A stretch of 64,000 nucleotides of DNA from Nitrospirota bacterium (GCA_963790025.1 CAWBMP010000002.1:384001-448000); one strand, 5' to 3'; shown: positions 7,083-37,247, numbered from the stretch's first letter. The notes: generated from the letters alone by a model not told the origin. Made by a program: numbers and translations.

Positions 7083-8020
7083 CGGGAATATCTTCTCTCA
7101 GCCTTGAGCAGGAAAAACTTTGCTATTGCAAGAACGATAAAACTCATTACGAAAAGGACAAGGGCCAGATAAAAAAGTGACGATAGATAGAGGTCTTTAT
7201 CGGCCTCGGTAAATTCATTGGCAAGCGTTACGGTAATGGTTGCAGCGGCATCAAAGAGCGACGTGGTAATCTGGTGATTATTTCCAAGGACAAAAGCCAC
7301 TGCCATAGTCTCGCCGAGCGCCCTGCCAAGGGATAGAACGACTCCTCCGTAAACACCGAGTTTTGAGTAAGGCAGTACAACGTTTTTCACAACCTCCCAT
7401 CTAGTTGCGCCGATGGCGTAAGCGGATTCCTTCACCACGGAAGGCGTCAAATTGAAAGAATCCCTTGAAATACTCGCAGTGAACGGTATAATCATAATGC
7501 TCAGGATGACACTCGCCGTCAGGATGTCGATGCCCATTGGGGTGCCGCTGAACAATATTCCGACTACGGGCAATGCGCCGAAGGTCTTCTGAAGAGCGGG
7601 TTCTATATACTTTGACATGATGGGGGCCAGTGTGAACAGCCCCCACATGCCGTAAATGATACTGGGTATTGCCGCCAGCAGTTCGATAGCGATCCCGATT
7701 GGTCCCTTCATGAAATTAGGAGCTATTTCAGTGACGAAAATAGCGATCCCGATAGCAAGCGGAATTGCAATTATGAGAGCGAGCACTGTTGTAACAAAAG
7801 TCCCGAAAATGGTAGTCGCAGCCCCGAAAGATTCTTTTACAGGGTCCCAATCGGTGGATTTCAGGAAATTTATGACGCCGAAATGGCCGATAGCCAGCGA
7901 CGATTCCCGTATAAGCACGTATAAAATGCCCAAAATCAAAAGAACTACCACTGAAGATGCTAATGCGGTGACAATAGAAAATGCGAAATCAGCAGAGTTC
8001 TTCTTATCAAGAATTGGCAA
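7079..8020 (-). CDS. pstC: Phosphate ABC permease PstC
   Basis: ELLAAIPSIIYGMWG, GRALGETMAV. Confidence 0.96.
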   Translation of the reverse strand: MPILDKKNSADFAFSIVTALASSVVVLLILGILYVLIRESSLAIGHFGVINFLKSTDWDPVKESFGAATTIFGTFVTTVLALIIAIPLAIGIAIFVTEIAPNFMKGPIGIAIELLAAIPSIIYGMWGLFTLAPIMSKYIEPALQKTFGALPVVGILFSGTPMGIDILTASVILSIMIIPFTASISRDSFNLTPSVVKESAYAIGATRWEVVKNVVLPYSKLGVYGGVVLSLGRALGETMAVAFVLGNNHQITTSLFDAAATITVTLANEFTEADKDLYLSSLFYLALVLFVMSFIVLAIAKFFLLKAERRYSR

Positions 8021-8062
8021 ACAGCTTGCTCCTTTTTGAAGAAATTAATCAAATGTTGAACG

Positions 8063-8179
8063 TTAAATGTTGCCGAGCACTCAAAGCGCCTGTGATTAGC
8101 GTGTTGAGCGCTCGGCAACATTTAATATCAAGAAGCAACTAAAAGGGTCAGGATATATAATACATGCCTGACCCTTTTA
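8063..8179 (-). terminator. Two tandem hairpins between pstS and pstC (terminator or mRNA stabiliser)
   Basis: 22-bp arms TTAAATGTTGCCGAGC(A/G)CTCAA at 8063-8084 and 8104-8125; 13-bp arms TAAAAGGGTCAGG at 8140-8152 and 8167-8179. Confidence 0.7.
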
Positions 8180-8191
8180 ATTCAATTAACT

Positions 8192-9202
8192 TTAATACAC
8201 GCCATACTCTTTCCAGTAGGCCCTGACCTTGTTCTTTAGGCCTTTGGGAAGCGGCACGTAAATCAGCTCTTTTGCTTTTGCATCCCCGTTCTTGAATGCC
8301 CAATCATAAAACTTAACGGCTTTCATAGCGCTTTCCTTTTTATCCTTGGCAAGCAGAATAAAGGTTGCGCCTGCGATTGGCCAGGAGTTCTTGCCAGGGG
8401 CATTAACGAGCCAGAGATCAAAGTCTTTTTTCGGATCGAAATTCGCTGAGGCAGCAGCATCTTCAAAGGCTTCGAAGCTCGGCTGGATAACTTTTCCTGC
8501 CGAATTTTTCAGCGCTGTATACGCCAGCTTGTTCTGTATTGCATAGGCAAATTCGACGTAGCCGATAGAATTCGGGGCCTGTTTTACATAGTTGGACACT
8601 CCCTCATTCCCCTTACCGCCTATACCGATTGGAAACTTTACAGATGTGCCTGCTCCAACTTTTGTTTTCCACGCAGGACACACATCGCTGAGATAATTGG
8701 TAAATATCGCGGTGGTACCGGAGCCGTCAGACCTATGGACAATGGAAATTTCACTGTGCGGCAATTGAACAGTCGGATTTAGGGACTTGATCTTTGCATC
8801 ATCCCAGAATTTTATCTCGCCAAGATATGCTTTGCATATGGAATCGGAGTCAAGTTTTAATTCGCCGGCTTTTAAGCCAGGCATGCTGACCACTAGAACG
8901 ACCCCTCCCATGACGGCAGGGAACTGGATCAAACCGTCTTTCTTGAGTTGTTCAGAGCTGAGAGGTGCATCGGATGCTCCGAAATCGACCGTCCGGGCTG
9001 AAATCTGCCTGATACCTCCGCCTGAGCCGATGGACTGGTAATTGATCCTGACGCCCGTAGCCTTCTGATAATCATAAGCCCAGGACTGATATACCGGGGC
9101 AGGGAATGATGCACCTGCGCCATTTATTATGTCCTCTGCATGCACCATGCTAAATGACAAGATACAAGCCACTGCTAAAATCAAACTTATTACTGATTTC
9201 AT
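8192..9202 (-). CDS. pstS: Phosphate ABC substrate-binding protein PstS
   Basis: Signal peptide, GAGASFP, YQSIGSGGG, DFGASD, HRSDGSGTT; AGGAGG RBS. Confidence 0.97.
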   Translation of the reverse strand: MKSVISLILAVACILSFSMVHAEDIINGAGASFPAPVYQSWAYDYQKATGVRINYQSIGSGGGIRQISARTVDFGASDAPLSSEQLKKDGLIQFPAVMGGVVLVVSMPGLKAGELKLDSDSICKAYLGEIKFWDDAKIKSLNPTVQLPHSEISIVHRSDGSGTTAIFTNYLSDVCPAWKTKVGAGTSVKFPIGIGGKGNEGVSNYVKQAPNSIGYVEFAYAIQNKLAYTALKNSAGKVIQPSFEAFEDAAASANFDPKKDFDLWLVNAPGKNSWPIAGATFILLAKDKKESAMKAVKFYDWAFKNGDAKAKELIYVPLPKGLKNKVRAYWKEYGVY

Positions 9203-9256
9203 AGTTATTCCTCCTTTTGTTAGAGCAACTTGGTTATCATAGCATAAGACTTTTTT

Positions 9257-9295
9257 GTTACGGGAATGTTACAGGAGAGTTAAAAATATATTACA
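9257..9295 (-). promoter_or_regulatory. Pho-box-like array upstream of pstS
   Basis: Plus-strand GTTACG/GTTACA/GTTAAA/ATTACA at 9257, 9268, 9279, 9290 (11-bp period). TATGCT lies 10 nt past the last GTAAC on the minus strand. Confidence 0.8.
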
Positions 9296-9396
9296 ATCAC
9301 CTCCCGTTATTCATTTTATTCATAAATACAACAGCTTGCTCCATGAGGTAGAGGGCTAAAGGCTAATGTCTAACGAGACGTGCGCCCTTTGTGGCC

Positions 9397-9585
9397 TTAA
9401 AAAAAAGGACATTTCTTATGCTGTTTACTCTTACAATATTCTTCGAGCTGAAACAGACTTGGCACATATGGTGCCTCGCCTGCCTGGCAAGTATATATAA
9501 GCCATTTGGTAAGATAGGGGCATTTCAGGCGCTTGGATTCAACTTTTACAAATCCGTCTTCCCTTCTTGCCGTGCCGCTTATCAT
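9397..9585 (-). CDS. Small 4-Cys protein, paralogue A
   Basis: C-x10-C-x17-C-x7-CPFF; same spacing as three other small ORFs in the window. Confidence 0.7.
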   Translation of the reverse strand: MISGTARREDGFVKVESKRLKCPYLTKWLIYTCQAGEAPYVPSLFQLEEYCKSKQHKKCPFF

Positions 9586-9591
9586 GTGACG

Positions 9592-9846
9592 TTACCCCAT
9601 TCCGATTGCAGCGAGAATTGCCTTGTTAGTTACCATTTCTTTCACATAGTTCTCTATATTAACGAGAGCGGGATCATAGGTGATAACAAGGCTGCCGGTA
9701 ACCGGATTGGCACGGATATCTTTAATACCGTCAGGGACAGGAAGAGCCGACAATTCTTTCAATGTTGCAATAGAAAGTTTCCTGATTATCGGCACCTGCA
9801 ACCTGATGCGTCCAGGAACATGGTGTACCACCTTATAGTCGATCAT
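9592..9846 (-). CDS. Stand-alone HMA2-like domain protein
   Basis: HHVPGRIRL ... ANPVTGSLVITYD; no CxxC. Confidence 0.8.
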   Translation of the reverse strand: MIDYKVVHHVPGRIRLQVPIIRKLSIATLKELSALPVPDGIKDIRANPVTGSLVITYDPALVNIENYVKEMVTNKAILAAIGMG

Positions 9847-9889
9847 CCACGCACCCCTTGACTTTCTTATTCATTAAATCATAACTATT

Positions 9890-9928
9890 CTTACAAAATG
9901 ATGAATTTGTTGTTACAACTTAATGACA
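9890..9928 (-). promoter_or_regulatory. Pho-box-like array upstream of the HMA2/4-Cys pair
   Basis: CTTACA/ATGAAT/GTTACA/ATGACA at 9890, 9901, 9912, 9923. Confidence 0.6.
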
Positions 9929-10060
9929 TTTCAGCAGAGATACGCGATGCAAGGTGATAGGCCAAAGGTAAAAGGTCAAAGAATTTATAACAGCCTATCT
10001 ATAAATGGGTAGGCGGTGTATAGGCCTAACGGCCTGAACAATTCATTTTTCGATAATGCG

Positions 10061-11254
10061 TTACTGTGATTTAAGCAGGTGGGCTTTATCGGTAATTTCC
10101 CATGGCAGCCCTATATCCATCCTGCCGACGTGTCCATAAGCTGCAAGCTTCCTGTAGAAACCTCCTTTAATCGCTGAAGGGAGGCGTCTCAGCTGAAACT
10201 GCCTTACAATACCTGCAAGCCTGAAATCGAAGTTTTTATCAACCAGGTCGGCAATAACAGTATCGGACAGTCTGCCGGTGCCGAACGTCTCTACCTGAAT
10301 GCTCACCGGATGGGCAAGTCCTATCGAATAACTGAGCTGGATTTCGCACTCGTCAGCAAGACCGGCCGCAACCACATTCTTTGCGGCGTAACGCGCCGCA
10401 TATGCGCCGATCCGGTCAATTCTCATCGGGTCCTTGCCGCTGAGCGCTGCACCGCTGTGGCGAGAGTACTCCCCATATGTATCAATAGCATTCTTTCTCC
10501 CGGTAAGCCCCGAATGGATTGACGGGCCTCCGGTAATAAACTGGCCGTCGGGATTGACGAAAATCCTGGTATCCTTATCCGGCTTCACGGCCTCATCATG
10601 GAATACATTGTCGATAATGGCCTCCCGTACATCACTGGTTAACTGTTTCAGATCAGGACCTGTGCCCTTCCTCTGGCTCGCAATTACCGTTATGCTGTGT
10701 ATCCTGTGAGGACGACGGTCTTTGAACTCCACACCCACCTGGGTTTTGCCGTCCTGGGAAAGATACGGAAGTATCTTCTGAAGTCTCGCTGAAGTGAGCC
10801 GTCTTGCGAGTTTGTGCGCCAGCCATATTGGAAGCGGCATAAATGCGGGAGTTTGCTTACAGGCGAAACCAAAAACCGTAACCTGATTTTTTACCGGGAC
10901 ACTGTCTATTTCACTCTCCGTCATCTCCCGTTCATCAAAACAGCAATCCGGGTCGCGGGGCGATTCTTTGAGGCTTGTTAAAATACTGCACGTTTTCCCG
11001 TTGAATTCCTGCCGTTCATAGCCAATCTGGCTTATCACCTGGCGGGCTATATAGGGGAAGTCCACATAAGCATCTGAGGAGTATCTGGCCGCAATAAAGA
11101 GAATGGAAGTCGAGACGGCGCATTCTGCTATAACGCGCGAGTACGGGTCCTGCTGGAGAAAGTGGTCTACGATAGCATCGCTTATCTGGTCACATAGTTT
11201 ATCTGGGTGCCCCTCGGTCACAGATTCGGATGTAAACATGAAATCTTTTTTCAT
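10061..11254 (-). CDS. metK: Divergent methionine adenosyltransferase (MetK) paralogue
   Basis: FTSESVTEGHPDK, DGKTQV, GLTGRK, SGKDP and AAYGH are kept, but GAGDQG is replaced by PVKNQV. ATGA overlap with the ATPase gene. Confidence 0.85.
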   Translation of the reverse strand: MKKDFMFTSESVTEGHPDKLCDQISDAIVDHFLQQDPYSRVIAECAVSTSILFIAARYSSDAYVDFPYIARQVISQIGYERQEFNGKTCSILTSLKESPRDPDCCFDEREMTESEIDSVPVKNQVTVFGFACKQTPAFMPLPIWLAHKLARRLTSARLQKILPYLSQDGKTQVGVEFKDRRPHRIHSITVIASQRKGTGPDLKQLTSDVREAIIDNVFHDEAVKPDKDTRIFVNPDGQFITGGPSIHSGLTGRKNAIDTYGEYSRHSGAALSGKDPMRIDRIGAYAARYAAKNVVAAGLADECEIQLSYSIGLAHPVSIQVETFGTGRLSDTVIADLVDKNFDFRLAGIVRQFQLRRLPSAIKGGFYRKLAAYGHVGRMDIGLPWEITDKAHLLKSQ

Positions 11255-14200
11255 ATCGCTTCACCTCGCATAGTTTTCTTTGTCGCTTCATTGACAACCA
11301 GAGGGAGTACCGCGCTTCCACCGATTACAAGGGCATCGGTAAGATTTATCATCGTAGTTCCGAGCAGTCCTCTTAGTCCGGGCACCGCTATTGTCAGGGC
11401 CTGCAGCGCAAAAGACCCCCCAAGGGCAACGTCCAGATATCTGTTCGCGGGCAGCCGCTCCTTGTCGAACATACTCAGTCTCTCAGAACGGCAGCTTATG
11501 GCATGCAGAAGCTGACTTGAGGTGAGACTCATAAAGGCCAGGGTCCCTGCCTGAGCTCCAGGACCGTACCGCATGACGCCATATCCGTAAGCTCCGAGCG
11601 CAGTCGCACTCATCATCGCAGATTCGAAACCGATCCTTTTAAAGTCACTGCTCATGATAATAGGATGGTTAGGATTACGCGGAGGCTTGCTTAGGACGTC
11701 GGGTTCAGGGAGTTCAAGTGCCAATGCGAGCCCGGGGAATATATCGGATATGAGGTTGATCCAGAGCAATTGCATCGCACTAAGCGGCTGTCCAAGACCG
11801 GCGGCAGTGGCGGTGAACATTACCATAATTTCGCTCAGGTTTGTCGACAGGATGAAGTGCAACGATTTTCTGATATTGTTATAAATGGTGCGTCCATGAC
11901 TTACCGCGATAATCATGGTCTCAAGATTGTCGTCTTCGAGCACAATATCCGCCACCTCACGAGCGACGTCTGTGCCGGTGTGGCCCATTGCAATTCCTAT
12001 GTCGGCTGCCTTGAGCGCAGGGCCGTCATTAATACCGTCACCGGTCATGGCGACAACTTTCCCTGTGCTCTGCAGGGCCTGCACAATTTGAAGCTTATGC
12101 GCCGGACTCACGCGGGAAAAGACATGGACCCGCCCGGCAAGCGCTTTCATGACATCGGGTTCAATATCCGTAAGGTGCGTCGAATCAAGAATTTCGAGTT
12201 GTTCTCCGTTGCTCAGGTCCAGCTCGTTTCCGATGGCATAGGCCGTCGGCGTCTGGTCCCCGGTTATCATAACTGTTTCTATGCCGGCTGAGTGGAAAAC
12301 GCCGATCAGTTCCTTGACCCCCCTTCTCGTAGGGTCTGCCATACCTACAAGACCGAGCCAGACGAAACCGCTGGTGATGTCGCAGGCACTGCTTCCGTTT
12401 TCTATATGTTGATACGCGATGCCGAGGATCCTGAGTGCTTCACCGGCCATTCGTTCATTTTCCGTTTCCATTGCGAGCCTGTCATCAACTGAAATCGGGA
12501 ACTTTTCGCCGTCCTTTATATACAAGTCGCACATTTCCAGCACTTCTGTAGGGCTGCCTTTCAGTGCTATGATCTTGCCCTCGGGGCCGAAGTCATGTTG
12601 GGTGGCCATATAATTGCGGTTTTCAGCACGGTAACATATTTTCAGTAACGGGTACATCTTTCTGATTTGAATGATGTCGACGCCTGCACAAATCGCCATA
12701 TGCATCAGGGCATTCTCGGTTGGTGATCCCCGCAGCACATATCTTCCTTCTCCATTTTCATAACAACTGCTTTCTGCAGGCGCCTCACCGGCATGTTCTT
12801 TTACGCTGATTTCAGATTCGTTGCATAGCACAGATATATGAATAAGCCTCATGAACTCGTCCGAGGCATAGGGGTTAACTGTCTCAACCCCGACCATAAA
12901 TTTGCCGTCCCTTGCCTTTATTCTCTTCATTCCTGTATAAATTGCAACAACCGACATCCTGTTCAATGTTATAGTGCCGGTCTTGTCCATACATATAGTT
13001 TGCACAGAGCCGAGAGTTTCGACTGCGTTGAGATGACGGATAAGGACTTTATGCCGTCTCATATTCCTGATTCCGAGAGCGAGGGTCGTGGTGGCAACGG
13101 TCGGCAGCCCTTCGGGGACCGCTGCTACAGCAAGAGAAATCGAGCTTTTAAGCATCTGGATGAAACCGTATCCCCTGAGCAGCCCTATAAGGAAAACAAC
13201 ACCGCAGACAGCCCCGCTGATCAACACAAGCTGTGTACCCATTTTCTTGAGCTGCCGCTCCATAGGTGTCTCGGGAGACTCCGCAGCTCCCACGAGTTCC
13301 TGTATTTTTCCTATCTCAGTAAACTTTCCTGTGGCCACGACCACTGCAAGGCCCTGTCCCCCCGTAACCAGGGTGCCCATATAGGCCATGTTGACCCTAT
13401 CAGCAAGCGGCACATTGTCTTCGTCTATGCTCTCTGTAGTCTTCACGACCGGCAGGCTCTCGCCGGTAAGCGCAGATTCATCGACGCTCAGATAGGTCGC
13501 TTCAATCAGCCTGCTGTCGGCGGCAATATAGCTGCCGGGCCTGAACACCAGCATATCGCCAACGACCACCTCCTCGGCAGGGATATCTTTAAAAATACCG
13601 TCCCTTATGACAAGCGAGGATGGCCTTACAAGACTTTTGAGCGAGTTAATGGTTTTTTCCGCCTGGCTCTCGGTGACATAGCCGATGACCGCATTGATGA
13701 CCACTACTCCGGCAATAACCACAGCATCAGCGACGCCGCCAGTCACTATCGAGAGACCGGCTGCAACACCCAGCAGGGCATTCGGGATCGAATTGAATTG
13801 ATCGATAAGAATACTGAATGCTGAACGTGGAACTGATTCAGGGAGCAAATTGGGGCCGAATTTCTTTAGTCTGGCTTGAGCGCTATCAGTTGAAAGACCG
13901 GCAGTTGCCGAGGAACCCAAACGCTTAAGGACTGCGGATGGTGCTTCGGTATGCCATGCCTCTACCGTCTGGTCTTCCGCGTGTTCAACAAGTCTTCTTA
14001 ATTTTCCCCTGCTTTTTACTGGGACAGAAGACCGGACAACATTGGCCTTGCCGCTTTCTACAACAGGGAAAGGGTACCCGGGCGCAGTCTCTGACTGAGT
14101 AACTGTATTTGCAGCCTGCTGAAAGTCGCCGCCTTGATATTCGCGGACGATATCATGAATAAGATGCGCTATGGCATGAGGGGTATTGAAGGAATTGAAA

Positions 14201-14364
14201 TAGACGAGAACACTGCCGGTCAATATGTTTATTGAGACGTCACTAATCCCCTCTAAGCCAGAAAGGCCTGATTCAAGGTGTTTTTTTAGAGATTCCGAAC
14301 GACGAAGCCCCTCTACCTTGTATCGGACCCTTCCCGGCACTGCCGCATGTACTGTCTCGACCAC
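11251..14364 (-). CDS. P2A-type (Ca2+/Mn2+-like) P-type ATPase with N-terminal HMA2-like domain
   Basis: TGES, AVPEGL, DKTGT, TGDGIND, STNLSE (M5), WINLISD (M6); N-terminus HAAVPGRVR. Confidence 0.92.
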   Translation of the reverse strand: MVETVHAAVPGRVRYKVEGLRRSESLKKHLESGLSGLEGISDVSINILTGSVLVYFNSFNTPHAIAHLIHDIVREYQGGDFQQAANTVTQSETAPGYPFPVVESGKANVVRSSVPVKSRGKLRRLVEHAEDQTVEAWHTEAPSAVLKRLGSSATAGLSTDSAQARLKKFGPNLLPESVPRSAFSILIDQFNSIPNALLGVAAGLSIVTGGVADAVVIAGVVVINAVIGYVTESQAEKTINSLKSLVRPSSLVIRDGIFKDIPAEEVVVGDMLVFRPGSYIAADSRLIEATYLSVDESALTGESLPVVKTTESIDEDNVPLADRVNMAYMGTLVTGGQGLAVVVATGKFTEIGKIQELVGAAESPETPMERQLKKMGTQLVLISGAVCGVVFLIGLLRGYGFIQMLKSSISLAVAAVPEGLPTVATTTLALGIRNMRRHKVLIRHLNAVETLGSVQTICMDKTGTITLNRMSVVAIYTGMKRIKARDGKFMVGVETVNPYASDEFMRLIHISVLCNESEISVKEHAGEAPAESSCYENGEGRYVLRGSPTENALMHMAICAGVDIIQIRKMYPLLKICYRAENRNYMATQHDFGPEGKIIALKGSPTEVLEMCDLYIKDGEKFPISVDDRLAMETENERMAGEALRILGIAYQHIENGSSACDITSGFVWLGLVGMADPTRRGVKELIGVFHSAGIETVMITGDQTPTAYAIGNELDLSNGEQLEILDSTHLTDIEPDVMKALAGRVHVFSRVSPAHKLQIVQALQSTGKVVAMTGDGINDGPALKAADIGIAMGHTGTDVAREVADIVLEDDNLETMIIAVSHGRTIYNNIRKSLHFILSTNLSEIMVMFTATAAGLGQPLSAMQLLWINLISDIFPGLALALELPEPDVLSKPPRNPNHPIIMSSDFKRIGFESAMMSATALGAYGYGVMRYGPGAQAGTLAFMSLTSSQLLHAISCRSERLSMFDKERLPANRYLDVALGGSFALQALTIAVPGLRGLLGTTMINLTDALVIGGSAVLPLVVNEATKKTMRGEAI

Positions 14365-14370
14365 GTAACT

Positions 14371-15039
14371 TTATTCTTCCCTTTTCGTTTTATGCTTTGT
14401 AGAAATTTCAGCCGGCCCGCTGGAAGAGGGTCCTGATGCAGACGAACGCGGCAGCGCGGAGCCGGCAATTTCCTTAACTCCGGAAACGACGCCGACCAGC
14501 ATGTCCTTTACAGCTCGCACTGCCGTATTCCCGATCGAGCCCGCGGCCTCTATTGCCCCGCCAACAGCGACAGTAGCGGCCTCTTCGACATTCCCACCTA
14601 CTTCTTTCGTAGCTTCAATTACACCGTCAACGGCCCTTCTCGCTACGAGTGCCACATCGGCACCGACTTCGGCAGCCCCCTTGACAGCGCCCTTAACGGT
14701 CTGCTCGGCAACTTTCATAACATCCCCGCCAACATCGCTGACGCCCATTACGATGCCCTTGGCAACGCTTTTGGTGCTCAGGATTAAGCCTGTGCCGACC
14801 TCTTCCGTAGCCTGAATTGCACCTTTTACCACATCTGCGGTAATAGTAACACCTTCATTAGCCACAGATGCAGTCGCTTTCAGGGTATTCGATACAGTAT
14901 TTCTGACAAGACTCACGATTTCCGCCTCGATTTCGTTTATCCCCTTCAGACTGCTTACAATCCCCTCTTTCACCTTTGTTCCGGCTGCGCCAATATATGC
15001 AGCCCCCTCTGAACCGACCTTCCCTTCGCTCTTAGCCAT
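14371..15039 (-). CDS. Ala/Val/Gly-rich protein with ~8 tandem 22-aa repeats
   Basis: Units such as EQTVKGAVKGAAEVGADVALVA and RRAVDGVIEATKEVGGNVEEAA; GGAGG RBS before ATG 15039. Confidence 0.85.
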   Translation of the reverse strand: MAKSEGKVGSEGAAYIGAAGTKVKEGIVSSLKGINEIEAEIVSLVRNTVSNTLKATASVANEGVTITADVVKGAIQATEEVGTGLILSTKSVAKGIVMGVSDVGGDVMKVAEQTVKGAVKGAAEVGADVALVARRAVDGVIEATKEVGGNVEEAATVAVGGAIEAAGSIGNTAVRAVKDMLVGVVSGVKEIAGSALPRSSASGPSSSGPAEISTKHKTKREE

Positions 15040-15092
15040 GATAATGCCCTCCATTTTTACACCTTTTAATTGTGTTGTTTTTAGCGTGCCGT

Positions 15093-15130
15093 AAAGTAGC
15101 GGCGTCACGGCGCATAGCTGCCGCTACTTT
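15093..15130. terminator. Intra-operon hairpin overlapping the stop of 15124..15609
   Basis: AAAGTAGCGGC ... GCCGCTACTTT. Confidence 0.5.
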
Positions 15131-15609
15131 CTCTCCTCATCAGCGGCAGCAGGCAATGATTTCAGAAATACGTTTAATGCATACCAGAAGGCGGTATACC
15201 ACGCAGGAGCTGCAAAGTTTCCACTTGCAATTTCGTAAACACCGAACCCGACAAGAGTAACGAAAGCAACTCCGGGTACATCCACTTCGTTACCGGTAAA
15301 TTTTTTCACTTTTTTATCAAAGCCACTGAAAGCATTGACAATATTGGCGGACAGAGCTGTGGTCCGTGGCCCTTTTTTGAGCTTGAAAAGTGCCTTTCCC
15401 TCGGCAAATGCTGCAATGGCCTTTAAATCAGCAGTATGTATAAATAACAGACTGCCTGTCAGGGCATTTGCATGGACCTGCTCAACTCCCTCAAATTGCG
15501 CAAAGTGATCCTGCAAAGCAGAGAAGTAGGCGGCATCTCCTTTCCTTCCAGGCACTTTTACCCTGAATCTTCCAGGCGTTGCGTGGCTCAAAATGGCTTC
15601 AGGTATCAT
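15124..15609 (-). CDS. HMA2-like domain protein with C-terminal membrane segment
   Basis: HATPGRFRV, ANALTGSLL; hydrophobic tail with PAWYTAFWYA. Confidence 0.85.
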   Translation of the reverse strand: MIPEAILSHATPGRFRVKVPGRKGDAAYFSALQDHFAQFEGVEQVHANALTGSLLFIHTADLKAIAAFAEGKALFKLKKGPRTTALSANIVNAFSGFDKKVKKFTGNEVDVPGVAFVTLVGFGVYEIASGNFAAPAWYTAFWYALNVFLKSLPAAADEERK

Positions 15610-15896
15610 TAAGCTCCTGTTTTGTCCTCGGGGTTAATGCCGGTTGTTTCAGTATGAGATTCTGCCATTTCAGCCTTTACCTCCGCAACGATATCTTCCA
15701 TCATTTCCCCTGCTTCCGCGAAAGTCTCTCTGCTTTTTTCATAGAGTATAAGGCCGCCCTTTATTGCAGCTTTTGCAATCGGTTTTACGACTCCTGCAAT
15801 CGCAGGAATCACCTGCGGGGCAAATAGGGCCGCGCCAATACCTATAGCCAATCCTGTAAGGATATTACCTTTTAACCCATTTTCAAATAGTGCCAT
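15609..15896 (-). CDS. DUF5132-like small protein (GxxxG membrane segment plus amphipathic helix)
   Basis: GLAIGIGAA..P ... KPIAKAAIKGG ... EDIVAEVKAE; AGGAGG RBS. Confidence 0.85.
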   Translation of the reverse strand: MALFENGLKGNILTGLAIGIGAALFAPQVIPAIAGVVKPIAKAAIKGGLILYEKSRETFAEAGEMMEDIVAEVKAEMAESHTETTGINPEDKTGA

Positions 15897-16025
15897 GGTT
15901 TCCTCCTTGTCGGTCTTTAAGTAAAGTGTATATTAATATGGGTTCAAAGTAAATGTAACCCAAACTTTTCATTACTTGCCTACTTTCAAGACAGGTAATC
16001 AGGAGACAGTTAAAGAATTCTTCAC

Positions 16026-16125
16026 TGTTAAAACCTTTGCTGTGACATGTTAAAACCTTTGTCTTGACACTCTTCATTTTTCGGCTATACTTTAATTGGA
16101 GCGTATATAAATTGGAGCGTATATA
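16026..16125 (+). promoter_or_regulatory. Sigma70-type promoter with a 22-bp direct repeat and a 16-bp tandem duplication
   Basis: TGTTAAAACCTTTG...TGACA twice (16026-16069); TTGACA 16064, 16 nt, TATACT 16086; AATTGGAGCGTATATA twice (16094-16125). Confidence 0.6.
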
Positions 16126-16144
16126 AAAAGGGAGGTGCATCGCT

Positions 16145-16306
16145 ATGCCTATTGAAGTGAGCGTCACAGAACGGGAACTGCTGAAGAAGATCCTCAATTC
16201 GTATCTTTCAGAGCTGAGACTTGAGATCGTCGAAACGAAACACGACAAATCGTCCCTCCATGAAGAAGAGAACCTCGTAAGAGGGCTGCTGCAAAAGGTA
16301 TCCTAA
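16145..16306 (+). CDS. 53-aa helical hypothetical protein (not in ORF track)
   Basis: GGGAGGT RBS; MPIEVSVTERELLKKILNSYLSELRLEI...QKVS*; promoter upstream and hairpin downstream. Confidence 0.75.
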   Translation: MPIEVSVTERELLKKILNSYLSELRLEIVETKHDKSSLHEEENLVRGLLQKVS

Positions 16307-16328
16307 CTGTTGTTATGCCTTGTTCCCC

Positions 16329-16370
16329 GCCGAAGCTACCCGCTCCACCCGGGTGGCTTCGGTCGATTTT
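16329..16370 (+). terminator. Intrinsic terminator-like hairpin
   Basis: CCGAAGCTACCCG ... CGGGTGGCTTCGG followed by a short T run. Confidence 0.55.
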
Positions 16371-16387
16371 AACAGCGTAATAGATTA

Positions 16388-16443
16388 TGTAACTTAAAAT
16401 TAATATTTCTGTAAAACTGCTTTAACCCTCTATCCTTTAAACT
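16388..16443 (+). promoter_or_regulatory. Pho-box-like array plus -10 upstream of olsB/olsA-like genes
   Basis: TGTAAC/ATTAAT/TGTAAA/TTTAAC at 16388, 16399, 16410, 16421, then 11 nt and TAAACT. Confidence 0.75.
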
Positions 16444-16583
16444 ATACAAATTCACATCGTGACATCAGAAATAATGAATATCCAATTTTACTATGTTACC
16501 AAGCACTTAAAGCGTATATGGATAATGTATTGAGTGTCCTGCGACATGCAGCATTCAACATTTCCCATAGAGGAGGTGCATTT

Positions 16584-17378
16584 ATGGAACACACTCAATG
16601 TACGGTTCTGAGCATGCGCAACGGTAATTTTATTGTGAAACTTGCTGAATACCATGAGGAACTGGTTAAAGCACTCAGACTGCGTTTTGATGTATTCAAT
16701 AGAGAATTGAACGAGGGTCTTGACAGCTCTTATATGACCGGGATGGACCGGGACAGTTACGATGACTATTGCGACCATCTTATTGTAATCGATACAAGAT
16801 GTAACAAGGTTGTAGGCACCTATCGCCTCCTCCTTGGTTCGGTCGCAGAAAGCAATATCGGCTATTATTCGGAGGGTGAATTCGACATGACCGGCATCAA
16901 GGCTATAGGTGGAGAGAAACTTGAACTCGGCCGATCCTGCGTCCACAGTGATTACAGGAATGCAGGTGTCATCAACCTGCTTTGGGCCGGCATAGCGCGG
17001 TACGTGGAAATGTACGATGTACGCCATTTATTCGGCTGCGGCAGCCTGCACACCGATGACCCTGTTGAAGTAAGCATGGTATACTTTTATATGAACACGT
17101 TTCACCGCTCGGGCGCCGAATTTACGGTGTACCCCATGAAAAAGCTGCGCGGGGTCGGCTTATGCCCTATTGTGGACCAGAAAACCGCGTTCGATAAACT
17201 TCCCCCGCTTATTAAGGGATACCTGCGGCTCGGAGCACTTATATGCGGAGAGCCGGCCTACGACGACGTATTCGGCACTACCGATCTCTATCTGCTACTG
17301 GAAACCGAAAAGTTGATCTCCCGGTATAAAAGGAGGTTTTTCCAGGAGCCAAACGAGACGTTATGCCGGGCATCGTAA
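16584..17378 (+). CDS. olsB: GNAT N-acyltransferase, OlsB-like (lyso-ornithine lipid synthase family)
   Basis: LRFDVFNREL, DSYDDYCDHL, VGTYRLL, LELGRSCVH, PPLIKGYLRLGA; GAGGAGG RBS before ATG 16584. Confidence 0.8.
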   Translation: MEHTQCTVLSMRNGNFIVKLAEYHEELVKALRLRFDVFNRELNEGLDSSYMTGMDRDSYDDYCDHLIVIDTRCNKVVGTYRLLLGSVAESNIGYYSEGEFDMTGIKAIGGEKLELGRSCVHSDYRNAGVINLLWAGIARYVEMYDVRHLFGCGSLHTDDPVEVSMVYFYMNTFHRSGAEFTVYPMKKLRGVGLCPIVDQKTAFDKLPPLIKGYLRLGALICGEPAYDDVFGTTDLYLLLETEKLISRYKRRFFQEPNETLCRAS

Positions 17379-18157
17379 AAATCCGAAAATTATTTCTCCT
17401 TCTTATAGTTAGCCTTTTCGTTTTTGTCTGTGGTATCCTGATCAAAGTCTTTCCCCTTGAACAGGGTCGAAAATTGAGTCTTCAGACACGCTTCATGCGG
17501 TTATGGGCACGGTCCGGCTGTTTCATCCTCGGCATCAATATTGCCTCCACCGGCTCATATAGAGCTGACGATGTTTTTTTTATCGTGAGCAATCATTGCA
17601 GCTATATCGATATACTTATTATCGGCAGTCTGATTCCATCCGTATTCGTTTCAAAAAGTGATGTGGCCTCATGGATATTCCTTGGGAGGATGGTAAAACT
17701 TGCCGGGACCATTTTTGTCAACCGGGAATCCAAAACAGCTTCGGTCAGAGCAATGGAGGCCATTAAGGAGCGACTTGCAAACGGCATCAATGTTGTGGTT
17801 TTTCCTGAAGGTACCACCAATAACGGACTTGCTATCAGAGATTTCAAGAGCACCTTTTTCAAGGCGCCCATCGACAGTAACGTGCCTGTTTTGCCTGTGA
17901 GCATTATTTATTCGCACATAGATCGAACTCCCGTGACACCCGGCACAATAGACGCCGTCGCCTGGCACTCAGACATGGAGTTTCTTTCTCATTTTTGGAA
18001 CCTTCTCGGTATCGGGAGGATTGACGCGCGTATTCATTTCAGTCCGCCCCTCTACCATTTTACCGAAAACAGAAAAATACTTTCTTCTTTTGTCTTTGAG
18101 AAAGTCAGAGATGGAATAGAAATTGGAAGATGTTTTAGAGAAGAAGATACTTGTTGA
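17363..18157 (+). CDS. PlsC-family acyltransferase, OlsA-like
   Basis: NHCSYID (HX4D) and FPEGT; overlaps the olsB-like gene. Confidence 0.85.
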   Translation: MPGIVKIRKLFLLLIVSLFVFVCGILIKVFPLEQGRKLSLQTRFMRLWARSGCFILGINIASTGSYRADDVFFIVSNHCSYIDILIIGSLIPSVFVSKSDVASWIFLGRMVKLAGTIFVNRESKTASVRAMEAIKERLANGINVVVFPEGTTNNGLAIRDFKSTFFKAPIDSNVPVLPVSIIYSHIDRTPVTPGTIDAVAWHSDMEFLSHFWNLLGIGRIDARIHFSPPLYHFTENRKILSSFVFEKVRDGIEIGRCFREEDTC

Positions 18158-18206
18158 ATGGGACAATTAGCCTGGCGGCAAGAAAGCGGCTGCGTTCGCG
18201 GCAGTT

Positions 18207-18578
18207 TTATATCAGGACAGCTAATATTGAGAGGGCCGAACCTTCCAATGCCTGCTGGACAAAGGCACCCAAAACCGCCCTGCCCACGATATGACCGGCT
18301 GTTTTAGCTGCTCCATGAATATACTGATCAGTGGTTGCCGCCTTTGTCGTATCGAAATAACCTTTTCTCTGCAATATATTGATAATATCGTTGTGGCCGG
18401 TCATTTTGGGGTTATAGTTTACCAGAAGACTACCGGTAGTAAGGTTAATATCGATTGTCGCAATACCCTGCAGCTGACTTAATGTCTTTTTTAACTCGTT
18501 AGCCACGTTTTCGTTCTTTTTTATTACAGGGCTTTTTATTCTGAGTCTTCCAGGCACATTATGAATGTAATAGCTCAC
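18207..18578 (-). CDS. HMA2-like domain protein with hydrophobic C-terminus
   Basis: HNVPGRLRI, INLTTGSLLVNY; GGAGGAG RBS. Confidence 0.85.
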   Translation of the reverse strand: MSYYIHNVPGRLRIKSPVIKKNENVANELKKTLSQLQGIATIDINLTTGSLLVNYNPKMTGHNDIINILQRKGYFDTTKAATTDQYIHGAAKTAGHIVGRAVLGAFVQQALEGSALSILAVLI

Positions 18579-18873
18579 TATCTCCTCCCTTCATGTCAAT
18601 TTTCGTGAATGTTTTACAATCTGGATATCCCGAACACCTGAACCGCAATATTTTTTCTTCCCTTTTATATAAATGCATCATTCTTCCGCAAACCGGGCAC
18701 AGAGGCCTGTTTTTTACTTCAAATCTTACGGCACCGGCGCTAAACTGCCTGCCGCATATAAGACATAGGAACCTCTGTTTTCCCTGCCACGTCTTACCAT
18801 ATTTATACACGGCATCCAACTTGCAGTGCGGGCATTTAGTTGTAAAGCTTTGTGTCACCGCATCTGCTGTCAT
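18559..18873 (-). CDS. Double zinc-ribbon protein (IS1 InsA-like ribbon plus topoisomerase C4-like ribbon)
   Basis: CPHC..KYGK..GKQRFLCLICGRQF and CPVCG...RCSGYPDC; no DDE domain. Start codon uncertain. Confidence 0.75.
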   Translation of the reverse strand: MTADAVTQSFTTKCPHCKLDAVYKYGKTWQGKQRFLCLICGRQFSAGAVRFEVKNRPLCPVCGRMMHLYKREEKILRFRCSGYPDCKTFTKIDMKGGDSELLHS

Positions 18874-18894
18874 GTAATATTTAATCAAATTATG

Positions 18895-18933
18895 GTTACA
18901 CGACTATGACAGTTTTGTTACTTTTGTGTTAAA
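18895..18933 (-). promoter_or_regulatory. Pho-box-like array
   Basis: GTTACA/ATGACA/GTTACT/GTTAAA at 18895, 18906, 18917, 18928. Confidence 0.75.
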
Positions 18934-19144
18934 TCTCGGCACACCGGGAAAACTCGGATAGCTTGCCATCCCAAGCAGGCTGCAATGCGCAAAAATAAAT
19001 CGAACACGCTTCATGATGACGGCCCATGCATACTTTAATATTGACATCTCTCATGTCTTTAATAAGTCTGTCCGCCGCATAGCAGTGAGCACCTTCAGAG
19101 GTCCCCTTAAGGTAAGGGCACATTATAAGACTTTGCATATTCAT
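18929..19144 (-). CDS. Small 4-Cys protein, paralogue B
   Basis: C-x11-C-x17-C-x7-CSIY; GGAGG RBS before ATG 19144. Confidence 0.75.
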   Translation of the reverse strand: MNMQSLIMCPYLKGTSEGAHCYAADRLIKDMRDVNIKVCMGRHHEACSIYFCALQPAWDGKLSEFSRCAEI

Positions 19145-19182
19145 AATACCCTCCATACCATAGATAGAATAGCAGTTGAATT

Positions 19183-19221
19183 GTTACAAGAATATTAAAA
19201 TAATGTTACATTCTTGTAACA
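19183..19221 (-). promoter_or_regulatory. Pho-box-like array
   Basis: GTTACA/ATTAAA/GTTACA/GTAACA at 19183, 19194, 19205, 19216; TATTCT 11 nt past the last GTAAC on the minus strand. Confidence 0.75.
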
Positions 19222-19280
19222 AAGAATTAATCGGTTCTGGGTCATAGAAAAATTATATTTTAACTCGGGGCACATACTCT

Positions 19281-19487
19281 TTATCTACTTCGCAAGGTCC
19301 TGGCAAGGAAAATTGGACAATTATCATAATTCTCGTTATCGCAATGACCTGCCCTTCTGTTTGTATCGATTACCATTCGTGAAAGAGAGGCTGCACAAAT
19401 ACCGCTCTCGTCATTGCAATACGGACAGTTATGCTCCTCACGTATAACGGCATAAATAGCTTCGCTCCTGGTTGCACACGTGTCCAT
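19281..19487 (-). CDS. Small 4-Cys protein, paralogue C
   Basis: C-x9-C-x17-C-x7-CPIF; starts 11 nt after the glycosyltransferase stop. Confidence 0.75.
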   Translation of the reverse strand: MDTCATRSEAIYAVIREEHNCPYCNDESGICAASLSRMVIDTNRRAGHCDNENYDNCPIFLARTLRSR

Positions 19488-19498
19488 ATAAGTGCCCC

Positions 19499-20728
19499 CT
19501 AGGCGAATCGCCCCTTTATAGCATCGATAATTCTGTAACGCAACGACCAGAAACCGTTTTCGGGACATGGGAACAGCATCGAATCTTTGCCGATACTATA
19601 CCGGTTACCCCTCCATACAACAGTATTGCTGACAATCGGTACAGACCATATGAGCCCGATAACAAGGTCTTTAATCGGGGAGAGCAAATAAAGAAAAGGG
19701 TTATCCATTTCGGTTTCCGTCTTTCTGCCAATATAAAAGTCGCCTGCCACTTTAAGGAGGGAGGTGAGAATCGCAAAGGTCACCGTCAATTTGGAGCACT
19801 CCCAGAATACGATCGGTAACGATGACATGAACACAGGATTCCCAACTAATTCGAATATATATCTCACCCCTCCGATCTTCCACCTGATCTTACCCCATCT
19901 TGTGTGGCGGTTAAGGAATCGACTCATTCCCCAGTATTCATTCACGTTTTGCACCATGTACCTGGACAGCACCACTTTTTTGCCGCTTTTATGCATTCTT
20001 TCACCGATAACATAATCCTCGGCAAGAATATCTTTTACCGATCTGAGCCCGCCGATTGCTTCCAAATCCTTTTTTTTCATCAGCATGGACTTTCCTACCA
20101 CACAGGGCATTTTCAAAAATTTATCAAGAAAACACACGCTTCCCATAATAAAAGAATTAAGGTGGAGGTTTTCAAATACGGAACCCAGCGAACGGCCGCC
20201 GACACCTTTTATAATATTGCTTACTAATCCGACTTCATGGCCTGTTTCCGGCTGGCTGATATGACTGGTTATCTCCGTAAGATAATTTGAGTCAACCATT
20301 ACATTGCTGTCGCTGATAAGAATATACTCATACTTTGAAGCCTTGTAAGCTGGAAGAAGATTATTGACCTTGGGATTGAGGCCTATAGAGGAATCTTTTA
20401 CAATAATGGTGATGTCCTTGTCCTGGTTTTTTTCCTGTATTTTTTGTGCTATTTTGTATGCAGGATCATTATGGCTCTGAAGAGAGAATATAATCTCATA
20501 TTCAGGATAGTCCTGTGCGCAAAAGCTCAGGAGATTGTCAAATAGATTATCATCCAGGCCCTTAAGCGGCTTAAGTATCGAAATTGGAGGAAAAAGTCGG
20601 GGAAGGGCCCGTTGCCCTTCCCCGCAGTTACAGGGAGTGGAAAGATATGAGCGTACTGCCCATATTTGGAAGCCGTAAGCGACGAGACCTAAAAAAGTAA
20701 CAAATGCGAAGAACCAGAATATACCCAT
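19499..20728 (-). CDS. GT2/GT21 ceramide-glucosyltransferase (HpnI-like) family membrane glycosyltransferase
   Basis: SILKPLKG, QDYP, NPKVNNL, ISDSNV, LAEDY, RHTRW. Confidence 0.88.
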   Translation of the reverse strand: MGIFWFFAFVTFLGLVAYGFQIWAVRSYLSTPCNCGEGQRALPRLFPPISILKPLKGLDDNLFDNLLSFCAQDYPEYEIIFSLQSHNDPAYKIAQKIQEKNQDKDITIIVKDSSIGLNPKVNNLLPAYKASKYEYILISDSNVMVDSNYLTEITSHISQPETGHEVGLVSNIIKGVGGRSLGSVFENLHLNSFIMGSVCFLDKFLKMPCVVGKSMLMKKKDLEAIGGLRSVKDILAEDYVIGERMHKSGKKVVLSRYMVQNVNEYWGMSRFLNRHTRWGKIRWKIGGVRYIFELVGNPVFMSSLPIVFWECSKLTVTFAILTSLLKVAGDFYIGRKTETEMDNPFLYLLSPIKDLVIGLIWSVPIVSNTVVWRGNRYSIGKDSMLFPCPENGFWSLRYRIIDAIKGRFA

Positions 20729-20750: not shown

Positions 20751-21449
20751 TTAGTTTCTGAAAAGGGTAATTGCCACCCCTTTATTATGTTTGATGCATT
20801 GTTTCACTGCTGCCGTATCTTTCTCGCAATTGAGAAGTGTCTTCCATGAATACAGGTGACGCGCCTTGTGAAAATCGCTATTGGCGAGATAAGGATACTT
20901 TTTAAGGCTTATTACATTAAAAACATCGTCCCTGTTTGCCACTTCCCATGCATCGATGTATTTGGCATATTTTTCCCTGTTGTTCCAGAGGAAAAGCGTG
21001 TCCTTGCTCATGTCCGACATATAATGCGGGTGGCAGGCCACTATCAGCGCATCCTGCTCCTTTGCCTCGGAAAATATTTTTTCGTAGTTCCAGGAGGCAG
21101 AAATAAAATCTTTTATATCAATTAGCAGCATATGGGCCGATTTGTCGGATGACAGATGGTTTTTGCTGATTTCAACTCCTGGGATCACCAGCATCCCGTA
21201 CTTGTCCCATGCCCTTTCAGCTTCCTCTTTGACATGTTCCATATACTCGTCGAAATTGTCTTCTCTCACTGTAAGATTGAAGCGATGGGCAAACTTTCCG
21301 ATCGAGTTGACTTCACTTACTACATGGTCCGTAATTGCGATAACATCGAACCCTGCCTGTCCAAAAAGGTCGACGGTCCGTTTTAACTCTACTGAACCGT
21401 CGGAGTAGGTGGTGTGTATATGGAAATCGCATAAAAGCATCACATACAT
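20751..21449 (-). CDS. PHP-domain phosphoesterase
   Basis: DFHIHT, ITDH, PGVE, HPH, NSDFH. Confidence 0.9.
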   Translation of the reverse strand: MYVMLLCDFHIHTTYSDGSVELKRTVDLFGQAGFDVIAITDHVVSEVNSIGKFAHRFNLTVREDNFDEYMEHVKEEAERAWDKYGMLVIPGVEISKNHLSSDKSAHMLLIDIKDFISASWNYEKIFSEAKEQDALIVACHPHYMSDMSKDTLFLWNNREKYAKYIDAWEVANRDDVFNVISLKKYPYLANSDFHKARHLYSWKTLLNCEKDTAAVKQCIKHNKGVAITLFRN

Positions 21450-21464: not shown

Positions 21465-21513
21465 GTTACAGGATTATTAAGGGCTTATTAAGATTGTGTT
21501 ACGTTATGTTACG
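21465..21513 (-). promoter_or_regulatory. Pho-box-like array upstream of the PHP-GT-4Cys operon
   Basis: GTTACA/ATTAAG/ATTAAG/GTTACG at 21465, 21476, 21487, 21498 (plus GTTACG 21508); TAGTAT 11 nt downstream on the minus strand. Confidence 0.75.
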
Positions 21514-22776: not shown

Positions 22777-22892
22777 CAAAACCGTTTCAGTCCCGCCAAT
22801 CCCATCTTAATCGTACAGCCATAACAGACATCTCCTTTAAACGCGCTCATACTCCCGTACTCATCAGCCGTGCTGACAAGTTGCCAGGCCAT
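22776..22892 (-). CDS. Possible 38-aa ORF with CYGC, coupled (TGATG) to GH1
   Basis: MAWQLVSTADEYGSMSAFKGDVCYGCTIKMGLAGLKRF*; no clear RBS. Confidence 0.3.
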   Translation of the reverse strand: MAWQLVSTADEYGSMSAFKGDVCYGCTIKMGLAGLKRF

Positions 22893-36027: not shown

Positions 36028-36028
36028 A

Positions 36029-37165: not shown

Positions 37166-37247
37166 ACGGCTTCACCCCTCTGCATCACGTGCTCATCTGC
37201 AAATACAAGCTTACAACATAGTGGAAATAAAAAACACAGTGCTATTA

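Follow-up and report, generated by a model that had tools for sequence, protein, structure and literature searches.

Organisation of the gene cluster

The subject of this study is a cluster of genes built around a P-type ATPase in a genomic window of 64,000 nucleotides from a Nitrospirota bacterium (GCA_963790025.1, CAWBMP010000002.1:384001-448000), the term window being used here for that whole stretch, with positions counted from its first letter. Five genes are packed tightly on the minus strand. The first (15609-15896) encodes a DUF5132 protein of 95 residues (Pfam PF17195, E = 1.4e-17) and overlaps by 1 nt at 15609 with a gene (15124-15609) for a 161-residue CoBaHMA (HMA_2) protein with a C-terminal helical hairpin, matched by PF19991 over profile positions 11-153 of 154 (E = 2.5e-12). 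The third (14371-15039) encodes a protein of 222 residues in which period analysis revealed a repeat of 22 residues and which has no Pfam or NCBIfam family. A gap of only 6 nt (14365-14370) separates it from the pump gene (11251-14364), the 1037-residue product of which is recognised by its Pfam domains (HMA_2 at residues 5-63, Cation_ATPase_N, E1-E2_ATPase, Cation_ATPase and Cation_ATPase_C) as a P2A-type ATPase with an N-terminal CoBaHMA domain. The pump gene is translationally coupled, through a 4-nt overlap of stop and start at 11251-11254, to the last gene (10061-11254), which encodes a MetK-derived enzyme of 397 residues with three MetK domains in Pfam and a score above the cutoff of the NCBIfam equivalog TIGR01034.

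Two further CoBaHMA proteins are encoded on the same strand on either side of these five genes, a monodomain protein of 84 residues (9592-9846; PF19991, E = 1.3e-8) and a protein of 123 residues with a hydrophobic C-terminal tail (18207-18578; PF19991, E = 6.5e-15; PF00403, E = 6.2e-8), and both are conserved in the Nitrospirota loci described below. The cluster lies beside pstS-pstC-pstA-pstB-phoU (4808-9202, minus strand), all five of which score above their NCBIfam equivalog cutoffs. No NCBIfam model matched any of the small proteins of the cluster, and a scan of positions 9000-20000 against Rfam matched no family. The genes, domains and motifs named in an initial annotation of this DNA were all recovered at their positions with Pfam, NCBIfam and a list of open reading frames (ORFs).

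Conservation and linkage of the module

An important consideration in attempting to establish whether such genes belong together is how often they are found together elsewhere. The locus survey covered species-representative genomes (one genome per species), in which the best 80 matches of the pump gave 76 loci. In 18 of these the match begins within pump residues 1-12, and these are referred to as fused-pump loci; they comprise 11 from Nitrospirota, one from Nitrosospira multiformis and one each from metagenome-assembled genomes (MAGs) of Sedimenticolaceae, Competibacteraceae and Desulfobacterales, together with three from other gammaproteobacterial MAGs. A nineteenth was found by a tblastn search of plasmids on pMVF16-1, a 1.4-Mb replicon of the cultured Microvirga sp. 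VF16 (L078). The remaining 58 loci served as controls, since they hold ordinary P2A pumps in which the match, at 35-41% identity, does not begin before about residue 54-156 (about 110-156 in most). Partners were sought among the ORFs of each locus with phmmer and with iterated hidden Markov models built from the window proteins, and were counted when they lay within 10 kb.

A DUF5132 gene accompanies the fused pump in 17 of the 19 loci, the exceptions being L015, which has none, and L009, the sequence of which ends 808 bp upstream of its pump. The MetK variant is likewise present in 17/19, and is absent from L015 and from the Microvirga locus. A hairpin-type CoBaHMA protein was found in 14/19 and a stand-alone CoBaHMA protein of any kind in 15/19, while the 22-residue-repeat protein occurs in 12/19, which are all of the Nitrospirota loci and that of Nitrosospira. 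In contrast, the DUF5132, MetK variant, CoBaHMA-hairpin, other stand-alone CoBaHMA and repeat proteins were found beside none of the 58 ordinary P2A pumps (0/58). The 11 Nitrospirota loci are syntenic and have to be counted as one lineage, so that the 19 loci represent approximately six independent lineages, five of which retain the linkage. Nitrosospira, two gammaproteobacterial groups and Microvirga differ in gene order and keep the linkage all the same. The survey confirms that the gene set is a real, conserved module whose linkage is not a matter of chance, and bears out the grouping of the DUF5132, CoBaHMA, pump and metK genes in the initial annotation. The module is laterally mobile. The closest homologues of both the pump and the MetK variant bear names from Nitrospirota, Dissulfurispiraceae or Thermodesulfovibrionales MAGs.

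A number of other features of these loci were recorded. In L004 (10001-13115) and L016 (9974-13172) the fused pump is broken into two or three ORFs, reflecting either a frameshift (pseudogene) or an assembly error. Searches of plasmids by tblastn with the DUF5132 and CoBaHMA-hairpin proteins returned only Microvirga sp. VF16 and a lone DUF5132 gene, without partners, in Sinorhizobium chiapasense. In Microvirga a DUF445 protein and two CoBaHMA-hairpin proteins are encoded downstream of the fused pump. The proteobacterial loci have recurrent neighbours of their own, namely Zn_peptidase_2 directly upstream (5/5), CitMHS transporters and Usp proteins (5/5), EcsC (4/5), PHA_gran_rgn (3/5) and NUDIX (2/5). 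Within the window itself a gene of the Na+/Ca2+ exchanger family (56713-58641, minus strand) adjoins one for a tandem-Usp protein, Usp being also the family that flanks the module in the gammaproteobacterial loci. In the N. multiformis MAG (L010) a glycine-zipper 2TM protein (17482-17940) adjoins DUF5132 and is reminiscent of the GlyZip proteins encoded near ccyA, and a radical-SAM/SPASM gene (5905-7545) lies upstream of the pump.

The pump

The best NCBIfam match of the pump is the PMR1-type model TIGR01522, at 606 bits against a cutoff of 798, followed by the SERCA-type model at 520 against 703, and the best matches among solved structures are human SPCA1 (5e-138), Listeria LMCA1 (2e-133) and SERCA1a (about 1e-119). 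In common with these Ca2+(/Mn2+)-ATPases the pump has the DKTGT sequence and the ten-helix architecture of the Cation_ATPase_N and Cation_ATPase_C domains. The window pump carries PEGL, STNLSE and WINLISD, and the corresponding motifs, PEGL in M4, (S/A)TN..E in M5 and WINL.(S/T)D in M6, are conserved in 12/12 fused pumps aligned for display, the ion-site residues being placed by SERCA numbering. A motif scan of the pump found none of the D[YF]SCA, HNxxT or CPC-type motifs. These observations support the assignment of the pump, already made in the initial annotation, to the P2A (Ca2+-type) ATPases, with putative Ca2+-site residues like those of SERCA-type and SPCA-type pumps.

The pump differs from these relatives in several respects. 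Since its scores fall below the NCBIfam equivalog cutoffs it represents a distinct P2A subfamily, and it has an extra N-terminus of 130 residues that includes the CoBaHMA domain and, in Nitrospirota, a glutamine in M8. In a FastTree phylogeny of 72 pumps, from which L004 (its pump being split into two ORFs) and controls shorter than 800 residues were left out, the 19 fused pumps formed one clade with a support of 0.998. PF19991 was found together with P2 domains in 109 of the 120 best pump homologues listed. The CoBaHMA family paper of Gaschignard et al. from 2024 is said to mention transport proteins and may already list a fusion of CoBaHMA with a P2A pump.

The CoBaHMA, DUF5132 and repeat proteins

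All four CoBaHMA copies in the window carry the motif H-x2/3-PGR-x-R and no cysteine. The arginine-rich part reads GRVRYK in the pump and, in the other three proteins, GRIRLQ, GRFRVK and GRLRIK, the motif is conserved throughout the fused-pump clade, and H9, R14 and R16 are invariant in the CoBaHMA alignment. [quoted passage not shown] The CoBaHMA family has been described as having an additional strand beta0, a conserved histidine and a basic patch (bioRxiv 10.1101/2024.07.07.602159). Its marks are an HMA-like ferredoxin fold with the additional strand, the histidine ahead of beta1, basic residues on beta1/beta2 and the lack of CxxC; the window proteins agree with these, the additional strand being seen in the model of the hairpin protein.

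The DUF5132 protein has an N-terminal hydrophobic helix (approximately residues 12-37 on the Kyte-Doolittle scale), which is followed by a helix with an acidic stripe on one face. The residues of this stripe, E53, E57, E61, E64, D68, E72 and E76, are spaced i+3/i+4 and are invariant in 10 sequences from three lineages. Either the stripe or anionic lipids may be the partner of the basic face of the CoBaHMA domains. The GxxxG character ascribed to DUF5132 in the initial annotation holds for the Nitrospirota copy, which has the sequence GLAIGIG, but is not conserved, since the gammaproteobacterial orthologues are without those glycines.

The repeat protein has a self-identity of 27% at a shift of 22 residues and of 20% at a shift of 44, compared to a maximum of 19.5% in 200 shuffles, and it is 59-89% identical across Nitrospirota and Nitrosospira. 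In its AlphaFold2 model (pLDDT 69.4, predicted template modelling score 0.65) eight helices, each about 19 residues long, form an alpha-solenoid, and the basic C-terminal tail is disordered. Foldseek matched it in the PDB only to designed helical-repeat proteins, and the ESM Atlas returned only unnamed clusters. The idea that it might be a relative of calcyanin or of other glycine-zipper proteins was rejected because it is predicted to be soluble and to have a helix-turn-helix repeat of 22 residues.

The MetK-derived enzyme

The enzyme coupled to the pump retains the three-domain fold of S-adenosylmethionine (SAM) synthetase and all of its Mg2+, K+ and triphosphate residues. Its clade was represented in the alignment by 136 members, consisting of 120 database representatives (73-100% identity) and 16 copies from the loci, with E. 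coli K-12 MetK as the reference. No member differs at H14, D16, E42, D163, K245, K265 or D271, and 135/136 have K165. Elsewhere the clade departs strongly from MetK: E55 is replaced by R in 133/136, D118 by N in 130/136 (D being retained in only one) and D238 by H in 136/136, to which may be added K269 replaced by R in 136/136, G253 by E in 135/136 and a gating loop remodelled with an insertion of five residues. D118 presumably has a role in methionine binding. In human MAT2A, according to one report, Glu70 and Asp258 hydrogen-bond the amino group of methionine, and an Asp258Gly substitution lowered or abolished SAM synthesis and left the phosphatase activity unaffected (PMC6850014). The two enzymes were related by motif position, E55, D118 and D238 of E. 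coli corresponding to E70, D134 and D258 of the human protein. Judged from these residues, the methionine pocket of the MetK copy is remodelled, with all three acidic residues replaced, around a predicted Mg/triphosphate site that is intact.

The module of Microvirga sp. VF16 has no MetK. Positions 5728-7339 of that locus, which comes from a record without annotation, instead hold two tandem genes for CYTH-domain proteins that precede, in the same orientation, a pair of DUF5132 genes and the fused pump. Triphosphatase or polyphosphatase activity is typical of CYTH enzymes (PMC8233210). Taken together, the changes in the MetK pocket and the CYTH pair suggest that the conserved role of the enzyme in the module is the cleavage of triphosphate and not the supply of SAM. 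It has to be asked whether the MetK copy is nevertheless an ordinary or specialised SAM synthetase that supplies methylation, for example of lipids, and is linked to the pump only through a need for K+/Mg2+ or for energy. It passes the equivalog cutoff, F230, which stacks the adenine, is retained in 128/136 members of the clade, and the sources that name any of the 120 best homologues listed all call them methionine adenosyltransferase or S-adenosylmethionine synthetase. Set against this are the replacement of E55, D118 and D238 throughout the clade and the position of the gammaproteobacterial copies, which are evidently not the housekeeping orthologue because they are closer to the Nitrospirota copy (54-55% identity) than to E. 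coli MetK (39-42%); moreover, no methyltransferase gene was found in the cluster. SAM supply is accordingly an improbable explanation. A literature search on MetK paralogues linked to P-type ATPases yielded nothing relevant.

The names themselves deserve comment. A full search of a library clustered at 50% identity gave 18,380 MetK-family representatives at E <= 1e-3, and among the best 150 of these 88 have the canonical E/D/D triad and roughly 25-30 are of the H238 type. MetK-derived proteins of the H238 type have probably been mis-annotated on a large scale. The clade is a clear case of a housekeeping enzyme with a rebuilt substrate pocket.

The phosphate context

The motif TGTHAY-N5-YGTAAC occurs six times in the window, where 0.06 occurrences would be expected, and none of 100 shuffles reached six, a count that is partly circular because the motif was defined after the sites had been seen. 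Sites precede pstS (9257-9273, minus strand), the 84-residue CoBaHMA gene (9912-9928, minus strand), the gene pair for a Zn-ribbon protein and the 123-residue CoBaHMA protein (18895-18911), a small cysteine protein (19204-19221, palindromic) and a GH1 gene (22957-22973). The motif is termed Pho-box-like (Pho standing for the phosphate regulon) from its association with pstS and its resemblance to the E. coli consensus. A strict expression demanding at least three Pho half-sites in 11-bp phase found none, and an array of four hexamers is visible at 9912-9950 only if TTCATC is taken as a degenerate half-site.

Independent support for the Pho-like motif comes from its positions in relatives. There the 84-residue CoBaHMA gene and the DUF5132 operon diverge from one shared intergenic region that carries the motif, and an exact match lies between the two in 8 of the 10 Nitrospirota loci that hold both (L001-L006, L008 and L017; not L007 or L018). 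L001, L005 and L008 also have matches a short way downstream of the start of pstS. There is no such site at the promoter of the operon in the window, a caveat that the initial annotation had entered and that stands, the sites preceding instead both satellite CoBaHMA units. This absence can be attributed to an inversion, for the 5.9-kb operon from DUF5132 to MetK (10069-15958) has, with respect to its flanks, the opposite orientation to that in each of the four relatives compared (L004, L007, L008 and L018). The junction regions are 9937-10068 and 15959-16570; no inverted repeats were found at them, and the approximately 610 bp at 15959-16570 have no counterpart in the four relatives. The DNA immediately upstream of the operon holds two copies of a 22-bp direct repeat (TGTCA[AC] and then CAAAGGTTTTAACA) at 16025-16069, and an ORF of 53 residues (16145-16306, plus strand) has no Pfam family and no homologue in any locus compared. 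The connection to phosphate status suggested in the initial annotation is supported, for Nitrospirota, by the putative regulatory motif that the locus has in common with pstS.

Several other genes fall within this region. A pair of acyltransferase genes (16518-18157, plus strand; Pfam Acetyltransf_5 and Acyltransferase), for which the best NCBIfam matches are OlsB and OlsA, both below cutoff, stands between the operon and the 123-residue CoBaHMA gene and probably serves the synthesis of ornithine lipid, a phosphorus-free lipid. Looser versions of the motif precede the OlsB-like gene (a pair of half-sites at 16376-16393) and a gene for a PHP-domain phosphoesterase (21498-21513, with a 4-nt spacer). 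The phosphoesterase (20751-21449, minus strand) and the GH1 glycosidase (21535-22779, minus strand) each have a Pho-box-like motif upstream, and the putative Pho island may extend to about 23 kb. The 123-residue CoBaHMA gene is overlapped at its start by one for a 109-residue protein (18559-18888, minus strand) with Zn-ribbon domains in Pfam and NCBIfam. This stand-alone protein is similar to the zinc-binding domain at the N-terminus of IS1/IS1595 transposases but has no transposase body, and the Nitrospirota loci conserve it.

Three paralogous small cysteine proteins (9397-9585, 18929-19156 and 19281-19568, all on the minus strand) adjoin the stand-alone CoBaHMA genes and are conserved in the Nitrospirota loci; neither Pfam nor NCBIfam has a family for them. 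They share the pattern CP-x9/10-C-x17-C-x7-C, and C22, P23, C33, C51 and C59 are invariant in an alignment of 11 paralogues and orthologues. The first, a four-cysteine protein of 62 residues encoded 6 nt downstream of the 84-residue CoBaHMA gene, matched only unnamed clusters in the ESM Atlas, and for the third the alignment suggests a start at an internal methionine (about 19490) rather than at 19568. Further away, two adjoining MacAB/DevABC-type ABC efflux sets, each with a NodT-family outer-membrane factor (32797-43557, minus strand), look ordinary.

A role for the pump that involves no compartment must be considered here. P2A pumps export Ca2+ from the cytosol, and the module might simply maintain Ca2+ homeostasis by efflux across the plasma membrane during phosphate stress: the consumption of polyphosphate and phospholipid would free Ca2+ to be pumped out, the CoBaHMA domains would sense the fall in anionic lipid and the MetK-like or CYTH enzyme would scavenge phosphate from short-chain polyphosphate. 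The Pho island fits this, with pstSCAB-phoU, the OlsBA-like genes and the PHP phosphoesterase each near a Pho-like motif, as do the triphosphate enzymes, which suit a scavenging role, and the NUDIX or His_Phos_1 genes beside two gammaproteobacterial loci. The authors who named CoBaHMA hypothesise that it binds anionic lipids. What efflux leaves unexplained is the presence of three or four extra membrane or scaffold partners, none of which stands beside the 58 ordinary P2A pumps, and the occurrence of the same families beside organelle and biomineral genes elsewhere. It is a possible explanation, and nearly as likely as the storage function proposed in the next section.

A possible function for the module

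The interpretation favoured here, to which we would assign a probability of roughly 0.4, is that the module is linked to Pho and serves to sequester or handle Ca2+ in a manner coupled to the cleavage of triphosphate, its most likely use being in a membrane-bounded, Ca/P-rich store. On induction of the Pho regulon the pump would move Ca2+, or possibly Mn2+, from the cytosol across a specialised membrane. The basic faces of the CoBaHMA domains on the pump, the hairpin protein and the monodomain proteins would dock on the acidic stripe of DUF5132 or on anionic lipids, and this docking would place or gate the pump, with the alpha-solenoid repeat protein as a possible scaffold. Beside the pump the MetK-derived enzyme would cleave triphosphate, either inorganic triphosphate (PPPi) or a chain derived from ATP, to pyrophosphate (PPi) and phosphate (Pi). 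The outcome would be a membrane-bounded store of Ca and phosphate (ortho-, pyro- or polyphosphate), or control over the counter-ion of such a store. Granule-related neighbours, in the form of PHA_gran_rgn in 3/5 gammaproteobacterial loci and the glycine-zipper protein in Nitrosospira, were counted in favour of this proposal. Three elements of the case go beyond the initial annotation, namely the loss of the MetK pocket, the Microvirga CYTH pair and the motif tying the Nitrospirota locus to pstS.

A number of observations weigh against a store. The fused pump of L015 has no partner at all, three gammaproteobacterial loci have no stand-alone CoBaHMA protein within 10 kb and CYTH was seen in place of MetK at one locus only. 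Nitrospirota alone show the Pho link, none being visible in the proteobacterial loci, and in the window the inversion separates the operon from the Pho-like motif. Pho-induced storage is, in addition, less intuitive than Pho-induced scavenging or efflux. As to the pump, its ion specificity is read from motifs, it scores below the cutoffs of the Ca2+-ATPase equivalogs, and in Nitrospirota it has Q in M8 where the gammaproteobacterial fused pumps and ordinary bacterial P2A pumps have a glutamate. The structural claims are all predictions of moderate confidence, with pLDDT of about 70, and the helices of the hairpin fall short of the standard hydropathy threshold for transmembrane segments, so that an in-plane or monotopic hairpin is possible. 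Any inclusion or internal membrane in these organisms is so far a prediction.

If the module does make or service a Ca/P-rich compartment, its pump would be of a third class among those of genetically defined bacterial mineral organelles, the biology of ferrosomes and that of intracellular carbonates would be linked through shared accessory parts, and there would be a genetic handle on the storage of Ca and P in groups of environmental importance, namely nitrifiers, Competibacteraceae and Thermodesulfovibrionia-like Nitrospirota. Because Nitrosospira multiformis and Microvirga sp. VF16 are cultured carriers, these questions are open to experiment.

Comparison with known systems

The idea of a membrane-bounded store of Ca and phosphate loaded by ion pumps is shared with the acidocalcisomes, the Ca/polyphosphate organelles reported in Agrobacterium and Rhodospirillum, which are defined by an H+-pyrophosphatase and by their acidity. 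Neither an H+-pyrophosphatase nor PPK or VTC was seen in the 64-kb window.

The initial annotation had described the cluster as a ferrosome-like toolkit, and the layout is indeed parallel. In the fez operons, as described, FezB is a P1B-6 pump with an N-terminal RxR/RxRxR sequence and the motifs D[Y/F]SCA and HNxxT, FezC combines an HMA domain with two membrane helices, FezA-like proteins are hydrophobic with GxxxG motifs, and iron-homeostasis genes are found nearby (bioRxiv 10.1101/2020.01.10.902569). Likened by these motif descriptions, both operons combine a P-type ATPase with an R-rich N-terminus, an HMA-plus-hairpin protein and a small hydrophobic protein. The fez product is a phosphate-containing mineral, iron phosphate, stored in a lipid-bounded organelle, whereas the system described here is known from its genes. 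It might be supposed from the parallels with FezB, FezC and FezA, and from the phosphate in the mineral, that the module builds a true ferrosome with a P2A pump in the role of FezB. The pump, however, has ligands of the Ca2+ type and lacks every P1B-6 motif, and Pfam and NCBIfam scans of the window and of nine non-Nitrospirota loci found no Fur, Feo, ferritin-like or other iron genes, which makes a ferrosome a most improbable identity for the module. A further difference is that the DUF5132 partners do not conserve GxxxG. What stands of the comparison with ferrosomes is the parallel layout, and the term ferrosome-like is best taken as an analogy of parts and not as membership. No paper containing both the terms CoBaHMA and ferrosome was found in the literature searched.

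A second comparison is with the neighbourhood of ccyA in Microcystis aeruginosa PCC 7806, where two DUF5132 proteins, a CoBaHMA-helical-hairpin protein and a CoBaHMA monodomain protein are encoded beside a Ca2+ transporter, and where expression of ccyA goes together with that of DUF5132, the CoBaHMA-DUF454 gene and cax (bioRxiv 10.1101/2024.07.07.602159). This preprint was the only item in the literature searched that contained either DUF5132 or PF19991. The architecture it describes for DUF5132, a transmembrane helix and then a long soluble helix, matches that of the protein here, and the hairpin protein here agrees, by the published description, with the CoBaHMA-DUF454-Cter hairpin protein of the ccyA neighbourhood. 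As its transporter Microcystis has a Ca2+/H+ exchanger that lacks the CoBaHMA domain, in contrast to the P2A ATPase with a fused domain found here; calcyanin is seen only in the Microcystis system, and the MetK-like enzyme, the solenoid of 22-residue repeats and the Pho context only in the present one.

This likeness raises the question of whether the module is a system for intracellular amorphous Ca-carbonate (iACC) that works without calcyanin, loading Ca2+ into carbonate granules like those of magnetotactic Nitrospirota and Pseudomonadota. The Pfam families are identical to those beside ccyA and cax in Microcystis, and Ca-carbonate inclusions have been reported in magnetotactic Nitrospirota in a paper that mentions no ATPase (PMC12710302). 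Yet a crude glycine-zipper scan of all ORFs of the window for the C-terminal (GlyZip)3 of calcyanin matched nothing but transporters remote from the cluster, the Pfam and NCBIfam scans of the window gave neither a carbonic anhydrase nor a bicarbonate transporter, no magnetosome genes were seen in the 64 kb, and the phosphate context and triphosphate enzymes point to P and not to C. A carbonate system is thus unlikely, if less so than either SAM supply or a ferrosome.

A wider proposal, which is speculative and on balance doubtful, is that CoBaHMA and DUF5132-type proteins form a general prokaryotic toolkit for membrane-bounded mineral stores with interchangeable pumps, P1B-6 for iron phosphate, CAX for Ca carbonate and P2A here. 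The present instance would then be a hitherto unseen, Pho-controlled, acidocalcisome-like Ca-(pyro/poly)phosphate organelle of Nitrospirota, nitrifiers and sulfur/glycogen-accumulating Gammaproteobacteria, with PPi/Pi supplied at the pump by a MetK that has been neofunctionalised or by a CYTH enzyme. The module is not a ferrosome, although by analogy of its parts it shares kinds of accessory proteins both with the ferrosome pump and with the Ca2+ exchanger beside ccyA, and it is the ccyA neighbourhood and not fez that is its closest documented relative.

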